NCBI RefSeq assembly: GCF_057098645.1
Contig: NZ_CM169472.1
Reading direction: 5' to 3' (one strand)
Length of the DNA stretch: 64,000 bases
Below are positions 5,610-63,408 of this stretch, in pieces. The notes beneath the pieces are model-generated. The model was not told the DNA's origin, did no database searches, and saw only the letters and a program-made list of their open reading frames with translations. A program made the position numbers and the translations under genes. Each line of letters begins with the position of its first letter. The stretch's first letter is position 1.

Positions 5610-7094
5610 TTAATGCACTTCCAGCGGCCAGTGGACATAGCTCTGCCACTGGCTTTCCTGAGCAATAATCTCTTTACCCAGCGGATGTTGGGTTAGCCAA
5701 CCTTGCGGAAGCGTCAAGGTCAACAGTTCATGGTTAGCCTGTAATGTCATCTCTGGCACGAGATCGTCACGGCGACGGCTGGCAAAAATGATGGCCAGGC
5801 GTAGTAAACGGCAGAGTTGTTCTGCGACGCGCGGCGGTACGGCATTTTGCTGATGCAGCGATGAGAGATCGATCGGATTAGTCTGGTTGAGCAGTAGTGT
5901 CGCCAGCAATTTTTTCTGTGCGGGGGTAAAACCGGGAAGATCCAGATTACGCACCAGATAAGCAGCGTGTTGCGGCGCTTGTTTGAAGTCAACGCTCAGG
6001 CCGATTTCATGAAGCTGACAGGCGCTGATGAGCAAATCGCGGCTTATTGCTTCAAGATGCCATTCGTTTTCCACCTGATCGAAGAAGTTAGCCGCAACTT
6101 TGGCTACGCGCTGTGCCTGATCAATATCGATCATAAAGCGGCGTTGAATATTACGCAGCGTACGGCTGCGAATATCCTGCTCGACGGCCAGATGCAACAT
6201 GCCGTAGACCAGGCCTTCACGCAGCGCACCGCCCGCCAGGGTCATACACTGAATATTCAGTTCGGTAAAAATGGCGATCAGGATCGCCAGACCACTCGGG
6301 AACACTAACGCACGTTCCAGCGTCAGCCCGTCAATCTCTAGCTCTTCCAGCCGACCGCAATGAATGGCGCGTTGTTTCAGTTGCTGCAACTTTTCCAGGG
6401 TAATGCGTTCATCCATCCCCTGTGCCATCATGATTTCCTGTAACGCCTGCACGGTGCCGGAAGCACCAACGCACACTTTCCAGCCGTGATACCGTAATTC
6501 ATCGGCAACCGGACGTAACACTTCGCGTGCCGCTTTTTCTGCAGCATCAAAATTTTCCTGCCCCAGATTACGATCGGCAAAATAGCGTTCCAGCCAGGTG
6601 ACGCAGCCCATCGACAGGCTGAACAACGAGGTGGTTTGTGCACCCGTGCCGGTTACCAGTTCAGTACTGGCTCCGCCTATATCCACCACCAGGCGCTGAT
6701 CGGCACCACCAGTGGTGTGAGCAACGCCCTGATAAATCAGACGTGCTTCCTCTTCACCGCTGATCACCTGTACCGGACAACCGAGAATTTCCTGCGCTTT
6801 GGCAATAAAATCACCCGCATTGACGGCAAGGCGTAACGTCGCCGTAGCGACAACGCGAATTTGCGAGGGAGGAATATCTTGCAGACGTTCAGCAAACAGG
6901 CGCAGACATTGCCAACCGCGCTCCATTGCTTCATTGGAGAGGGCATTTTCGCTATTCAGGCCAGCAGCCAGACGCACTTTGCGTTTTATTCGCGTCAGCG
7001 TCTGGATGCTTCCAGCCACCTCGCGCACAACCAGCATATGAAAACTATTCGAACCGAGATCAATGGCTGCATACAGCGACGAGGTGGAACCCAT
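5610..7094 (-). CDS. gppA: guanosine pentaphosphate phosphohydrolase / exopolyphosphatase
   Basis: Ppx/GppA-family [26 protein letters not shown]... N-terminus. Confidence 0.93.
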
Positions 7095-7139
7095 ACTCTT
7101 CATCCTTCAATCTGTCTCTGTGTTGGCTGCATTCTTTCA

Positions 7140-7171
7140 CCTGAATCACTTACTACAGTAAGTGATTCAGG
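7140..7171. terminator. perfect 15-bp-arm inverted repeat (2-nt spacer) between the rhlB 3' end and gppA 5' end
   Basis: cctgaatcacttact-ac-agtaagtgattcagg. Confidence 0.5.
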
Positions 7172-7227
7172 ATTCATTCTCTTGCCATCTTGATACAGTT
7201 TGAATGATTTTGAGTATGACATTTTAT

Positions 7228-8493
7228 TTAACCTGAACGACGACGATTACGCGGAGCGCCAGTACGACGCGGACCATTGCCTGTACGTGGGCGCGTGAGG
7301 CGCAGCGGTTTTGGCAGATCGGTCATCAATGTGTCCGGATTGTATTTGCTTACCGGAATTGAGTGACCAATATAGGTTTCAATAGCAGGCAAATTCAATG
7401 CATACTCTTCACACGCCAGGCTGATAGAGTGACCGCTTGCGCCTGCGCGACCTGTACGACCAATACGGTGAACGTAATCTTCACAGTCATCGGGTAAATC
7501 GTAGTTAAAGACGTGCGTCACTGCCGGAATATGCAAACCACGCGCGGCAACGTCGGTGGCAACCAGAATATCCAGATCGCCACGGGTAAATTCATCAAGA
7601 ATACGCAGACGTTTTTTCTGCGCGACATCGCCTGTCAACAAACCGACACGATGACCATCTGCCGCCAGGTGGCCCCAGATCTCTTCACAACGGTGTTTGG
7701 TATTGGCGAAAATAATCGCTCTGTCTGGCCACTCTTCTTCGATCAGCGTTTGCAGCAAACGCATTTTTTCTTCGTTAGAAGGGTAGAAAAGCTCTTCTTT
7801 AATACGGTGGCCCGTTTTCTGTTCCGGTTCCACTTCAATATATTCGGCATTGTTCATCTGCTCGAACGCCAGTTCACGTACCCGGTACGAAAGCGTGGCG
7901 GAGAACAGCATGTTGAGGCGCTGGTTTGCAGGCGGCATACGGCGGAACAGCCAGCGGATATCTTTAATAAAGCCCAGATCGTACATGCGATCGGCTTCGT
8001 CCAGTACCACTACCTGAATGGCACCGAGGTTAATGTGGTTCTGCTTGGCGTAGTCAATTAAACGACCCGTGGTGCCAATCAGAATGTCAACGCCGCTTTC
8101 CAGCACTTTCAGCTGTTTGTCGTAACCATCACCACCGTAAGCCAGACCCAGCTTCAGGCCGGTAGCTTCCGCCAGCGGTTCCGCATCGGCATGGATCTGC
8201 ACGGCAAGTTCACGCGTCGGTGCCATAATTAAGGCACGCGGCTGATTCACCTTGCGATCGGCAATCGCAGGATGAGAGAGAAGATAATGAAACGTTGACG
8301 TAAGAAACGCCATCGTTTTCCCGGTACCGGTTTGCGCCTGCCCGGCTACGTCACGACCCGCCAGCGTCAGCGGAAGGGCCAGTGCCTGAATGGGCGTACA
8401 GTTATGAAACCCTTTTTTTTCAAGGGCTTCTACAACCTTCGGATGCAGGGCGAAGTCGGAAAACTTCTGTTCTGTTAAATGTGTTTTGCTCAT
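7228..8493 (-). CDS. rhlB: ATP-dependent RNA helicase RhlB (degradosome DEAD-box helicase)
   Basis: 421-aa ORF with DEAD-box motifs ([12 protein letters not shown]), Arg-rich C-terminus. Confidence 0.95.
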
Positions 8494-59170: not shown

Positions 59171-60070
59171 GTGGCGCTACTTATCATCACCACGATTCTG
59201 TGGGCCTTCTCCTTTAGCTTTTATGGCGAGTACCTTGCGGGGCACGTCGATAGCTATTTTGCGGTGCTGGTGCGCGTTGGCCTGGCGGCACTCGTTTTTC
59301 TGCCGTTTCTGCGTACCCGTGGCAATAGCCTGAAAACAGTCGGCCTGTATATGCTGGTGGGCGCGATGCAGCTCGGCGTGATGTATATGCTGAGTTTCCG
59401 CGCTTATCTCTACCTGACGGTTTCCGAACTGCTGCTGTTCACCGTACTGACGCCGCTCTACATCACGCTGATTTATGACATCATGAGTAAGCGCCGTCTG
59501 CGCTGGGGATATGCTTTTAGTGCCTTGTTGGCGGTGATTGGTGCCGGGATTATTCGCTATGATCAGGTCACCGACCATTTCTGGACTGGCTTGTTGCTGG
59601 TGCAACTCTCCAATATCACTTTTGCCATCGGCATGGTGGGTTACAAACGCCTGATGGAAACTCGCCCGATGCCGCAGCATAACGCCTTTGCGTGGTTCTA
59701 TCTTGGCGCGTTCCTGGTGGCGGTAATTGCATGTTTCTTGCTGGGAAATGCGCAGAAAATGCCGCAAACCACGTTGCAATGGGGCATTCTGGTGTTTCTT
59801 GGCGTGGTGGCTTCCGGGATTGGCTACTTTATGTGGAACTACGGCGCAACCCAAGTAGACGCCGGAACGCTGGGCATTATGAATAATATGCACGTTCCGG
59901 CAGGGCTGCTGGTTAACCTGGCTATCTGGCACCAACAGCCGCACTGGCCAACGTTTATTACAGGCGCGCTGGTGATCCTGGCCTCACTGTGGGTGCATCG
60001 TAAGTGGGTCGCTCCGCGCTCTTCACAAACGGCAGATGATCGCAGGCGTGATTGCGCGCTGAGCGAATAA
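59171..60070 (+). CDS. yigM: EamA-family transporter (biotin uptake)
   Basis: 299-aa 10-TM ORF; 3' end overlaps the convergent metR 3' end. Confidence 0.85.
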
Positions 60071-60911
60071 ATGCTTCTGTAATCGGCTGACGCTGCTCGC
60101 CATCGCGCACGGCGGCGTACAGCCGGCTCCACAAGCCTTCGCCCAGGGTTTTGGTCGCCACCAGATCCTGGCGCTCAAAACTCTCTACTACCCAATGTGG
60201 TAGCGCGGCAATACCCATCCGCGCGGCAACCATCTGAATCAACAATAAGGTGTTATCGATGCTTTTCAGTGACGGGCTGACGCCTGCCGGCTGAAGAAAA
60301 TGCCGCCAGACATCCAGTCGACTACGCTGCACCGGATAAATTAATAGCGTCTCGCTGGCGAGATCTTCCGGTGTAATACGCGTTTTTGCCGCCAGTGGAT
60401 GGTCAGGTGCTAACACCAGGCGTACTTCATAATCGAACATCGGCGAATAATGCAGGCCACTGCGCGGCAGGATATCGGAGGTCATCACCAGATCCAGCTC
60501 GCCCTGTTGCAACGCGGGCTGCGGGTCAAACGTCACGCCCGATTTAAAATCCATCTCTACCTGCGGCCAGTTCTTATGGAAATTTTCTAACGCGGGTGTC
60601 AGCCACTGAATACAGCTATGGCACTCAATGGCAATGCGCAGACGCGTCTGCTGCGGTTCATTGCAGGCTTGCAGTGCCTGGCTGATTTGCGGCAGCACCT
60701 GGTTTGCCAGTTGCAACAGGATTTCTCCCTGCGGTGTAAAGCGTAGCGGCTGGCTCTTACGCACAAATAGCCGGAAGCCAAGGCGTTGTTCCAGATCGCT
60801 AAACTGGTGAGACAGGGCGGATTGCGTCTGATGCAACGTCGCCGCAGCGGCTGCGAGAGAGCCGCAGTTCCGCAACGCTTGTAGCGTTTTCAGGTGTTTT
60901 ACTTCGATCAT
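59958..60911 (-). CDS. metR: LysR-family transcriptional activator MetR
   Basis: 317-aa [57 protein letters not shown]... Confidence 0.95.
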
Positions 60912-61146
60912 GAAAGTCCTTCACTTCGGCATGAATAATTTGCGCTTGAGGAATATACAGTAACCGCCAATTATGGATGTGTAAACATCTGGACGGCTAA
61001 AATCATTCGTCTTTTAAATTTATGGTGCGTTGGCTGCGTTTCTCCACCCCGGTCACTTACTTCAGTAAGCTCCCGGGGATGAATAAACTTGCCGCCTTCC
61101 CTAAATTCAAAATCCATAGGATTTACATATAATTAGAGGAAGAAAA

Positions 61147-63408
61147 ATGACAATATTGAATCACACCCTCGGTTTCCCTCGCGTTGGCCTGCGTCGCGAG
61201 CTGAAAAAAGCGCAAGAGAGTTATTGGGCGGGGAACTCCACGCGTGAAGAACTGCTGGCGGTAGGGCGTGAATTGCGTGCTCGTCACTGGGATCAACAAA
61301 AGCAAGCGGGTATCGACCTGCTGCCGGTGGGCGATTTTGCCTGGTACGATCATGTACTGACCACCAGTCTGCTGCTGGGTAACGTTCCAGCGCGTCATCA
61401 GAACAAAGATGGTTCGGTAGATATCGACACCCTGTTCCGTATTGGTCGTGGACGTGCGCCGACTGGCGAACCTGCGGCGGCAGCGGAAATGACCAAATGG
61501 TTTAACACCAACTATCACTACATGGTGCCGGAATTCGTTAAAGGCCAACAGTTCAAACTGACCTGGACGCAGCTGCTGGAGGAAGTGGACGAGGCGCTGG
61601 CGCTGGGCCACAACGTTAAGCCTGTGCTGCTGGGGCCGGTTACCTGGCTGTGGCTGGGGAAAGTGAAAGGTGAACAGTTTGACCGCCTTAGCCTGCTGAA
61701 CGCCATTCTGCCGGTTTATCAGCAAGTGCTGGCAGAACTGGCGAAACGCGGCATCGAGTGGGTACAGATTGATGAACCCGCGCTGGTACTGGAACTACCA
61801 CAGGCGTGGCTGGACGCATACAAACCCGCTTACGACGCGCTCCAGGGACAGGTGAAACTGCTGCTGACCACCTATTTTGAAGGCGTAACGCCAAATCTCG
61901 ACACGATTACTGCGCTGCCTGTTCAGGGGCTACATGTGGACCTTGTACATGGTAAAGATGACGTTGTTGAACTGCACAAGCGCCTGCCTTCTGACTGGCT
62001 GCTGTCTGCGGGTCTGATCAATGGTCGTAACGTCTGGCGCGCCGATCTTACCGAGAAATATGCGCAAATTAAGGACATTGTCGGCAAACGTGATTTGTGG
62101 GTGGCATCTTCCTGCTCGTTGCTGCACAGCCCCATCGACCTGAGCGTGGAAACGCGTCTTGATGCAGAAGTGAAAAGCTGGTTTGCCTTCGCCCTACAAA
62201 AATGCCATGAACTGGCACTGCTGCGCGATGCGCTGAACAGTGGTGACACGGCAGCTCTGGCAGAGTGGAGCGCCCCAATTCAGGCGCGTCGTCACTCTAC
62301 TCGTGTACATAATCCGGCGGTAGAAAAGCGTCTGGCGGCGATCACCGCCCAGGACAGCCAGCGTGCGAATGTCTATGAAGTGCGTGCTGAAGCCCAGCGT
62401 GCGCGTTTTAAACTGCCAGCGTGGCCGACCACCACGATTGGTTCCTTCCCGCAAACCACGGAAATTCGTACCCTGCGTCTGGATTTCAAAAAGGGCAATC
62501 TCGACGCCAATAACTACCGCACGGGCATTGCGGAACATATCAGGCAGGCCATTGTTGAACAGGAACGTTTGGGACTGGATGTGCTGGTACATGGCGAGGC
62601 CGAGCGTAATGACATGGTGGAATACTTTGGCGAGCACCTCGACGGGTTTGTCTTTACGCAAAACGGTTGGGTACAGAGCTACGGTTCCCGCTGCGTGAAG
62701 CCACCGATTGTTATTGGTGACGTTAGTCGCCCGGCACCGATTACCGTGGAGTGGGCGAAGTATGCGCAATCTCTGACTGATAAACCGGTGAAAGGGATGC
62801 TGACTGGCCCGGTGACCATTCTCTGCTGGTCGTTCCCGCGTGAAGATGTCAGCCGTGAAACCATCGCCAAACAAATTGCGCTGGCGCTGCGTGATGAAGT
62901 GGCGGACCTGGAAGCCGCAGGAATTGGCATCATCCAGATTGATGAACCGGCGCTGCGCGAAGGTTTACCGCTGCGTCGTAGCGACTGGGATGCATATCTC
63001 CAGTGGGGCGTGGAGGCCTTCCGTATCAACGCCGCCGTGGCGAAAGATGACACACAAATCCACACTCACATGTGTTATTGCGAGTTCAACGACATCATGG
63101 ATTCGATTGCGGCACTGGACGCAGACGTCATCACCATCGAAACCTCGCGTTCTGACATGGAGTTGCTGGAGTCGTTCGAAGAGTTTGATTATCCGAATGA
63201 AATCGGTCCAGGCGTCTATGACATTCACTCGCCAAACGTACCGAGCGTGGAATGGATTGAAGCCTTGCTGAAGAAAGCGGCAAAACGCATTCCGGCAGAG
63301 CGCCTGTGGGTCAACCCGGACTGTGGCCTGAAAACGCGCGGCTGGCCAGAAACCCGCGCGGCACTGGCGAACATGGTGCAGGCGGCGCAGAACTTGCGTC
63401 GGGGATGA
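61147..63408 (+). CDS. metE: cobalamin-independent methionine synthase
   Basis: 753-aa [33 protein letters not shown]... Confidence 0.96.

Follow-up and report, generated by a model that had tools for sequence, protein, structure and literature searches.

A perfect palindrome between rhlB and gppA of Escherichia coli, identified from its sequence as the core of an ERIC/IRU repeat

The palindrome at positions 7140-7171 of the window (the whole stretch of 64,000 nucleotides under analysis) is, as judged by alignment and folding, the core of an ERIC/IRU repeat that fills the entire spacer between rhlB and gppA. Taking the evidence together, we consider it highly probable that it is the central stem of an ERIC inserted in codon 2 of the ancestral gppA, that its perfection results from a template switch, and that it forms a hairpin within the rhlB-gppA mRNA which is neither a terminator nor an operator. 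The finding is an ordinary one because the palindrome is the centre of a known repeat and is perfect only in a minority lineage of E. coli. It is already known in kind; the perfect allele and an open frame that crosses the element are refinements and define no new class.

The palindrome and the repeat that carries it

The inverted repeat has two 15-nt arms of 100% complementarity, CCTGAATCACTTACT at 7140-7154 and AGTAAGTGATTCAGG at 7157-7171, separated by a 2-nt spacer (AC). No longer perfect inverted repeat with a short spacer is found within the 64-kb window. Base composition predicts about 4e-4 such repeats per 64 kb by chance, and the longest arm is 8-12 nt across 20 mononucleotide shuffles versus the 15 nt observed. 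The preliminary description, which had called the palindrome unusually long and perfect and placed it between rhlB and gppA, is borne out on both points, the two genes lying on the minus strand. In RNA the palindrome adopts a 14-bp stem with a 4-nt loop (-20.5 kcal/mol), because the innermost pair is unable to close a loop of 2 nt; 6 of the 14 pairs of the stem are G-C. Other copies of the 15-mer arm were sought in the window, where the only matches carry 3 mismatches and occur at chance level. The features of the spacer and its neighbours are as follows.

7092..7218, minus strand: ERIC/IRU element, 127 nt including the degenerate copies of the TA duplication, now CA and TG (consensus alignment and fold)
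7140..7171, no strand assigned: perfect palindrome, central stem of the ERIC element (repeat search and RNA folding)
7228..8493, minus strand: rhlB coding sequence, 421 aa (RefSeq annotation of the identical E. coli sequence)
5610..7094, minus strand: gppA coding sequence, 494 aa (RefSeq annotation of the identical E. coli sequence)

ERIC/IRU elements are 127-bp non-autonomous miniature transposable repeats of enterobacteria. These elements of Enterobacteriaceae, also named RU-1, have reportedly been known since 1990-91 from the work of Sharples & Lloyd (1990) and Hulton et al. (1991), and Wilson & Sharp are said to have catalogued the E. coli copies in 2006. The lead to this family came from the centre of the spacer, which resembles ERIC primer sites, and a 44-nt ERIC core was used as query. 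Exact matches to this core occur in more than 4,700 E. coli genomes, with a median of 10 sites per genome. The core region covered by primers ERIC1R and ERIC2 is recognisable in the spacer (...GAATCC..N..CTTAC-NNNN-GTAAGTGA..). It is more diverged there than in typical copies and gives the 44-nt consensus query a 9-nt seed only. The core of the subfamily occurs on at least 120 metagenome stretches, several per contig.

Delihas 2007 (PMC2759123) reproduces the E. coli ERIC consensus of Wilson & Sharp; a gap-free alignment of it with the minus strand of window 7092-7218 gives 90 identities in 127 positions (blastn E = 2e-14), and the segment scores far lower in the opposite orientation. Nor did the spacer fail to align with independent ERIC copies, since it can be aligned over its entire length with the canonical ERIC between ybhJ and ybhI. 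These two alignments lead to the assignment of the palindrome as the central stem of an ERIC/IRU element. The minimum free energy fold of the spacer is one long imperfect hairpin extending over the whole element, with z scores of -6.1 and -7.5 for the two strands. The palindrome is only the tip of this hairpin, which covers the entire intergenic region. The structure is retained in 17 orthologous sequences, and compensatory changes are found across genera at 6 of its 35 predicted pairs. The ends of the element now read CA and TG, and the comparison of empty and filled sites described below fits insertion at TA followed by one change in each copy of the duplication. The element thus has the length, the full-length similarity, the hairpin, the core, the copy number and the transcribed extragenic location of an ERIC.

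The RefSeq record of K-12 has no ERIC annotated at rhlB-gpp. This absence is uninformative because the copy between metR and metE is likewise unannotated there. The latter is a second ERIC of the window, with its core at 61026-61098 (82% identity to the published consensus over 73 nt) and the whole element at roughly 61000-61125, between metR (59958-60911, minus strand) and metE (61147-63408, plus strand). Full-text literature searches for rhlB with gppA and ERIC, or for rhlB with ERIC, returned nothing relevant; these narrow searches found no report of the perfect allele or of the open frame.

A search of Rfam assigned the spacer to no family at gathering score and gave a weak match over the full length of V_AS5 (24.7 bits). 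This Vibrio antisense RNA also hits a canonical E. coli ERIC copy at 46.9 bits (E = 1.5e-8), below its gathering score. Both V_AS5 and the Yersinia sRNA Ysr49 match canonical ERICs over the full length of their models (L001:259-382 and L211:1058-1232), and the K-12 region orthologous to the metR-metE element has weak matches to the two of them. V_AS5 and Ysr49 appear, from these similarities, to be ERIC-derived transcripts. Since V_AS5 matches here as well as on a canonical ERIC, it looks derived from the repeat and provides no independent identity for the spacer.

Probable insertion of the element and proposed rewriting of its stem

The rhlB-gppA junction was surveyed in one genome per species with GppA, yielding 80 loci of Enterobacteriaceae (L002-L081), 77 of them scorable. 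The rhlB stop is separated from the gppA ATG by 3-11 nt in 54 of the 77 species, as in TAAGAAAATATGCTCAGC. The other 23 have a gap of 88-205 nt occupied by the element, whose orientation and ends are the same throughout. The filled species include four Escherichia, several Citrobacter, four Klebsiella, a Kluyvera, Raoultella terrigena, a Lelliottia and Intestinirhabdus. Within Salmonella, S. enterica diarizonae is filled and arizonae is empty. The empty site of S. arizonae is ATGCTAAAT (ATG-CTA-AAT) and the filled one of S. diarizonae reads ATGC-CA-[TACAC...GTGTA]-TG-AAT, a comparison which indicates that the element entered the TA of gppA codon 2. We propose that the ERIC inserted at this TA when the ancestral gppA started only a few nucleotides after rhlB. 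The old gppA ATG would have stayed to the left of the element. The new ATG would have been built at the right junction from three bases: the last A of the element, the T of the TA duplicate, and a G substituted at the second base of that duplicate.

Presence of the element differs between close relatives, as in strains labelled C. amalonaticus and in Kluyvera genomospecies 1 compared with K. cryocrescens. In the coding sequence on either side, divergence tracks the relatedness of the species, S. diarizonae and S. arizonae being 94-95% identical. For Citrobacter wls619 and C. youngae the identity is 98% on the rhlB side and 89% on the gppA side. Between S. diarizonae and one Citrobacter the element differs at about 6 positions only, with flanks that are 82-84% identical. 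This patchy distribution possibly reflects short-tract horizontal transfer or strong constraint. An independent insertion in each genus is unlikely because the filled loci share the site, the orientation and locus-specific end sequences. Precise excision was rejected as a source of the empty sites, given that a deletion between ATG repeats would not restore the extra CTN codon. Some copies have been remodelled internally: those of Enterobacter sp. 10-1 (L046) and Raoultella terrigena (L050) carry a 72-nt insertion inside the right half of the element, while internal deletions of 21 and 45 nt remove the central palindrome in E. albertii (L005) and in two Citrobacter (L009 and L065). ERIC variants with such an insertion and with such internal deletions were reportedly described by Sharp and colleagues.

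K-12 has an imperfect central stem, and so do all the other genera in which the element occurs. The arm that sets the window apart is the following.

7156..7171, minus strand: rewritten arm, the 5' (left) arm on this strand, CCTGAATCACTTACT in place of the CCCGATGAGCTTACT of other E. coli (allele comparison)

The left arm is CCCGATGAGCTTACT or a close variant in eight other E. coli alleles and in K-12; the right arm is exactly AGTAAGTGATTCAGG in seven of these nine, K-12 included. Some 4,500 further E. coli genomes share the imperfect left arm of K-12. Relative to the K-12-type left arm, the window has five changes within 7 nt, each of which creates complementarity to the unchanged right arm. 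The two alleles of the site, CCCGATGAG versus CCTGAATCA, differ in the predicted stability of the core RNA hairpin, the perfect form being stronger by 12.7 kcal/mol than the K-12 one (-7.8 kcal/mol). An allele census with a 60-nt query centred on the palindrome found the exact perfect form in 132 of 5,426 complete E. coli genomes (2.4%), including O145:H28, O169:H41, O157:H16 and ST361. There are essentially no intermediates, because a single genome matches the query at 95-99% identity and 4,517 do so at 90-95%. The new CCTGAA end matches the TTCAGG present in the right arm of the same locus. TTCAGG is found also in one Escherichia sp. (L002), the other genera having TTCGGG, TTTGGG or other variants.

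We infer that these five clustered changes without intermediates bear the mark of template switching within a quasipalindrome, which is an established source of mutations in E. coli (PMC7202029). The starting form would be that of most E. coli, a central stem with internal mismatches typical of the ERIC family. In the lineage of the window a single template switch during replication would have used the right arm of the quasipalindrome as template for the left, rewriting five bases together and generating the perfect palindrome with its 15-nt arms. As the changes form one arm-templated block, the perfection of the palindrome is best read as a recent mutational by-product and not as a conserved signal. 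Conversion from an unseen donor sequence is formally conceivable as the origin of the five changes. The template switch, which we favour, would make this locus a clear case, found in nature, of a quasipalindrome in which several bases were corrected together and which then grew common in an E. coli lineage. Events of this kind leave clusters of what look like point mutations, a possible source of error in phylogenetic and selection analyses.

Transcription across the spacer and possible roles of the hairpin

Published work offers different views of the transcription of this region. PMC9239193 cites SMRT-Cappable-seq for co-transcription of E. coli rhlB and gppA; the searchable supplements of SMRT-Cappable-seq make no mention of rhlB or gpp. 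Co-transcription of the two genes is proven for V. cholerae, whose rhlB-gppA gap measures 7 bp, and rhlB-gppA-pehV form a single transcription unit in Dickeya. E. coli gppA has also been treated as monocistronic, on the basis of a promoter in the spacer that is predicted only (PMC7552824). Our search of the sense strand of the spacer found no sigma-70-like promoter. We privilege the view that the ERIC is transcribed as part of the rhlB-gppA mRNA and would act, if at all, as an RNA hairpin within it.

RNase III usually needs a substrate of roughly two helical turns, longer than the 14-bp perfect stem. This bears on the alternative that survives best, in which the hairpin is an RNA processing or stability element: cleavage by RNase E or RNase III, or a block to exonucleases, would give differential levels of rhlB and gppA mRNA. 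Such a role is compatible with the ERIC identity and rivals our reading only as to the function of the element. Two reviews (PMC2229807 and PMC3184786) report that Yersinia ERICs are co-transcribed with their neighbours and that ribosomes expose an RNase E site in them which, for one orientation of the repeat, lowers the stability of upstream transcripts. The conservation of the hairpin across genera, with its compensatory changes, also speaks for this role. However, Term-seq of K-12 detects no stable 3' end in the spacer and one searchable RNase III supplement lists neither rhlB nor gpp. A role tied to perfection could not be general, because the perfect stem is limited to 2.4% of the genomes. 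On balance we regard RNA processing as rather unlikely.

Termination or pausing of transcription is much less probable still. It could take the form of a Rho-dependent or hairpin pause for rhlB, or of an intrinsic terminator acting on antisense transcripts of the plus strand. The strength of the perfect stem would suit such a function and, on the plus strand, the stem is followed by AUUCAUUCUC / ATTCATTCTC, a stretch flagged as terminator-like by a simple scan. Yet no gene converges on the palindrome or reads into it on that strand. The rhlB/gppA sense (minus) strand has no U-tract, since UGAAAGAAUG lies directly 3' of the stem. The published K-12 Term-seq tables (Adams et al. 2021, two conditions) contain no 3' end in the spacer (3964230-3964364); the nearest ones of the minus strand are at 3962698 (the gpp terminator) and 3965375 (within rhlB), and neither strand has any in the interval that they bound. 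The hairpin is thus no terminator in K-12; these data, like those on co-transcription, concern the imperfect K-12 allele, whose stem is 12.7 kcal/mol weaker than the perfect one. The spacer RNA is C-poor (20 C versus 28 G in 133 nt), which makes it a poor loading site for Rho, and the ancestral arrangement of the locus is a tight rhlB-gppA operon.

The same Term-seq data show a strong ORF-internal 3' end about 255 nt into rhlB, at K-12 3965375 on the minus strand (roughly window 8240), in the two conditions. It is unrelated to the palindrome.

Least probable of all is that a dimeric DNA-binding protein regulates gppA or rhlB from the palindrome: its two-fold symmetry is perfect over 32 bp, far beyond chance, and it lies 45 bp upstream of the gppA start, but K-12, about 97% of E. 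coli genomes and the other genera in which the element occurs all lack this symmetry, the sequence is one member of a dispersed repeat family, the search of the sense strand gave no sigma-70-like promoter, and a known mutational mechanism explains the five changes.

The preliminary description is accordingly upheld in part. It had noted that the rhlB strand lacks a convincing U-tract, which is correct, and had doubted that the hairpin is an intrinsic terminator, which is probably right. Its proposal to map the 3' ends of rhlB transcripts by Term-seq is answered, for the K-12 allele, by the published tables, which have no such end at the hairpin. The protein operator that it suggested is not supported. 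The comparison across Enterobacteriaceae which it advised reveals that perfect symmetry is not conserved, the palindrome being perfect in the 132 E. coli genomes and imperfect in K-12 and the other genera; an operator is unlikely for this reason. The Rho-dependent pause it also suggested finds no support in a spacer RNA that is C-poor and probably translated, and the ERIC identity was missed. The RNase processing site, its remaining suggestion, is conceivable by analogy with the Yersinia ERICs. As the core of a catalogued repeat family, the palindrome next to rhlB and gppA, which are RNA- and stress-related genes, can be closed as an operator or terminator candidate.

The open frame across the element and comparison with known systems

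An open reading frame crosses the element from the apparent old start codon of gppA nearly to the present one, corresponding to complement(3964235..3964357) in K-12. The features concerned are these.

7100..7222, minus strand: 40-codon ORF, from the apparent ancestral gppA ATG to a TGA 5 nt upstream of the present ATG (ORF list and alignments)
7231..7234, minus strand: AGGU in the last rhlB codons, presumed ancestral gppA Shine-Dalgarno (conservation; the role is presumed)
7092..7107, minus strand: present gppA initiation region, AAGGAUGAAGAGUAUG, composed of the right end of the element and the junction (alignment and fold)

The AGGU is now 8 nt upstream of the ATG of the 40-codon ORF. Its context, CAGGTTAA, is found in nearly all the loci examined, with three others reading GGCTAA. 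GGATGAAGNGTATG, which comprises the stop of the ORF and the start of gppA, is invariant across 17 aligned orthologues. The E. coli ERIC consensus has three internal stops in the frame of the ORF. Of 24 rhlB-gppA loci, 19 have no stop in this frame along the span that was aligned, and three of the five exceptions still run for 35-38 codons; for the remaining two sense frames only 2 and 1 of these loci are open. Length variants of the element remain in frame and keep the same stop (E. albertii -21 nt, two Citrobacter -45, a Klebsiella MAG -9, Intestinirhabdus +30).

As a control, a metagenome scan for the subfamily core provided 78 copies that adjoin neither rhlB nor gppA. The frame is open in 10 of these same-subfamily copies versus 19 of 24 here (Fisher p = 2e-9, for sequences that are phylogenetically non-independent). 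Some control copies, such as L108, L146 and L162, have a single stop in the frame, the subfamily being already low in stops elsewhere. A crude simulation puts the chance of a lineage staying stop-free at 0.18-0.77, for which reason we take the maintenance of the frame as suggestive and not decisive.

The 40-aa product is recorded in GenBank and UniRef as 'addiction module toxin RelE' from E. coli, Shigella, Citrobacter and Salmonella (P0001-P0026), and the ORF is not called in the current RefSeq records examined. RelE proteins are about 95 aa long. The name was rejected: the product has no Pfam or NCBIfam match at E <= 10, and it is also much shorter than RelE. The label is probably a propagated misannotation. 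One searchable small-ORF ribosome-profiling supplement does not list the 40-codon ORF.

In the consensus fold the first codons of the ORF, at the left end of the element, are base-paired to the gppA AUG and to some of its Shine-Dalgarno, and the outer stem has one compensatory change, A-U to U-A, at the pairing of this AUG. When the left arm is held open in silico, most of the gppA initiation region is freed in the minimum-energy structure, while its unpaired probability in the ensemble increases only from 0.27 to 0.38. The frame being open far more often here than in other ERIC copies suggests, without proving it, a translational relay to gppA. Ribosomes finishing rhlB would restart at the old gppA start codon which, with the Shine-Dalgarno in the end of rhlB, would drive translation of the 40 codons across the hairpin. 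The stem in which the gppA ribosome-binding site is sequestered would thereby open, and the ribosomes would stop 5 nt before the new gppA AUG and pass on to gppA. In at least eight genera selection would have preserved the open frame, even in copies that underwent in-frame deletion or insertion. We put forward only tentatively this conversion of a transposable repeat into a translational-coupling bridge within an operon, built on conserved sequence and predicted folds; it is a possibility somewhat less probable than its absence. The locus shows an operon junction that survived insertion of a repeat in a start-codon region, possibly by translation through the insert. If the relay operates, E. 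coli gppA expression depends on a small unannotated ORF and the published monocistronic view of this gene needs revision.

Coupling of translation by unmasking of a sequestered ribosome-binding site is the mode of control of the phage MS2 coat-replicase pair and of rpmI-rplT. The rhlB-gppA locus shares with these systems a downstream initiation region paired with a segment of the upstream ORF, here as a prediction, and a stop codon 5 nt from the start. It differs in that the upstream frame would be a remnant of gppA's own 5' end fused to a transposable repeat. The contribution of codons by a repeat to an annotatable ORF has parallels in ORF-carrying ERICs and other miniature repeats (Delihas 2007, PMC2759123). 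The 42-aa RU-1 frame reported in that study lies on the reverse complement of the consensus, whereas the 40-codon frame lies on the consensus strand, where the consensus has its three stops.

The proposed origin of the perfect allele resembles the quasipalindrome template-switch mutations of E. coli studied by Ripley and by the Lovett laboratory (PMC7202029), with clustered changes in one arm that raise complementarity in one event. Those were mutations in reporter genes; the rhlB-gppA case is a natural polymorphism common in a lineage (132 of 5,426 genomes), for which the mechanism is deduced from the pattern of changes. With the ERIC/IRU family the element has in common its 127 nt, the gap-free alignment to the consensus, the long imperfect hairpin, the membership of a multi-copy family, a probable insertion at TA and a position in a transcribed spacer between two co-oriented genes. 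It departs from the family in three respects. Its central stem is perfect in the window allele, where the consensus core has a 3-nt GAG:TCA mismatch, its flanking TA copies have decayed to CA and TG, and it lies within the former 5' end of a gene, with an open 40-codon frame that most copies lack.
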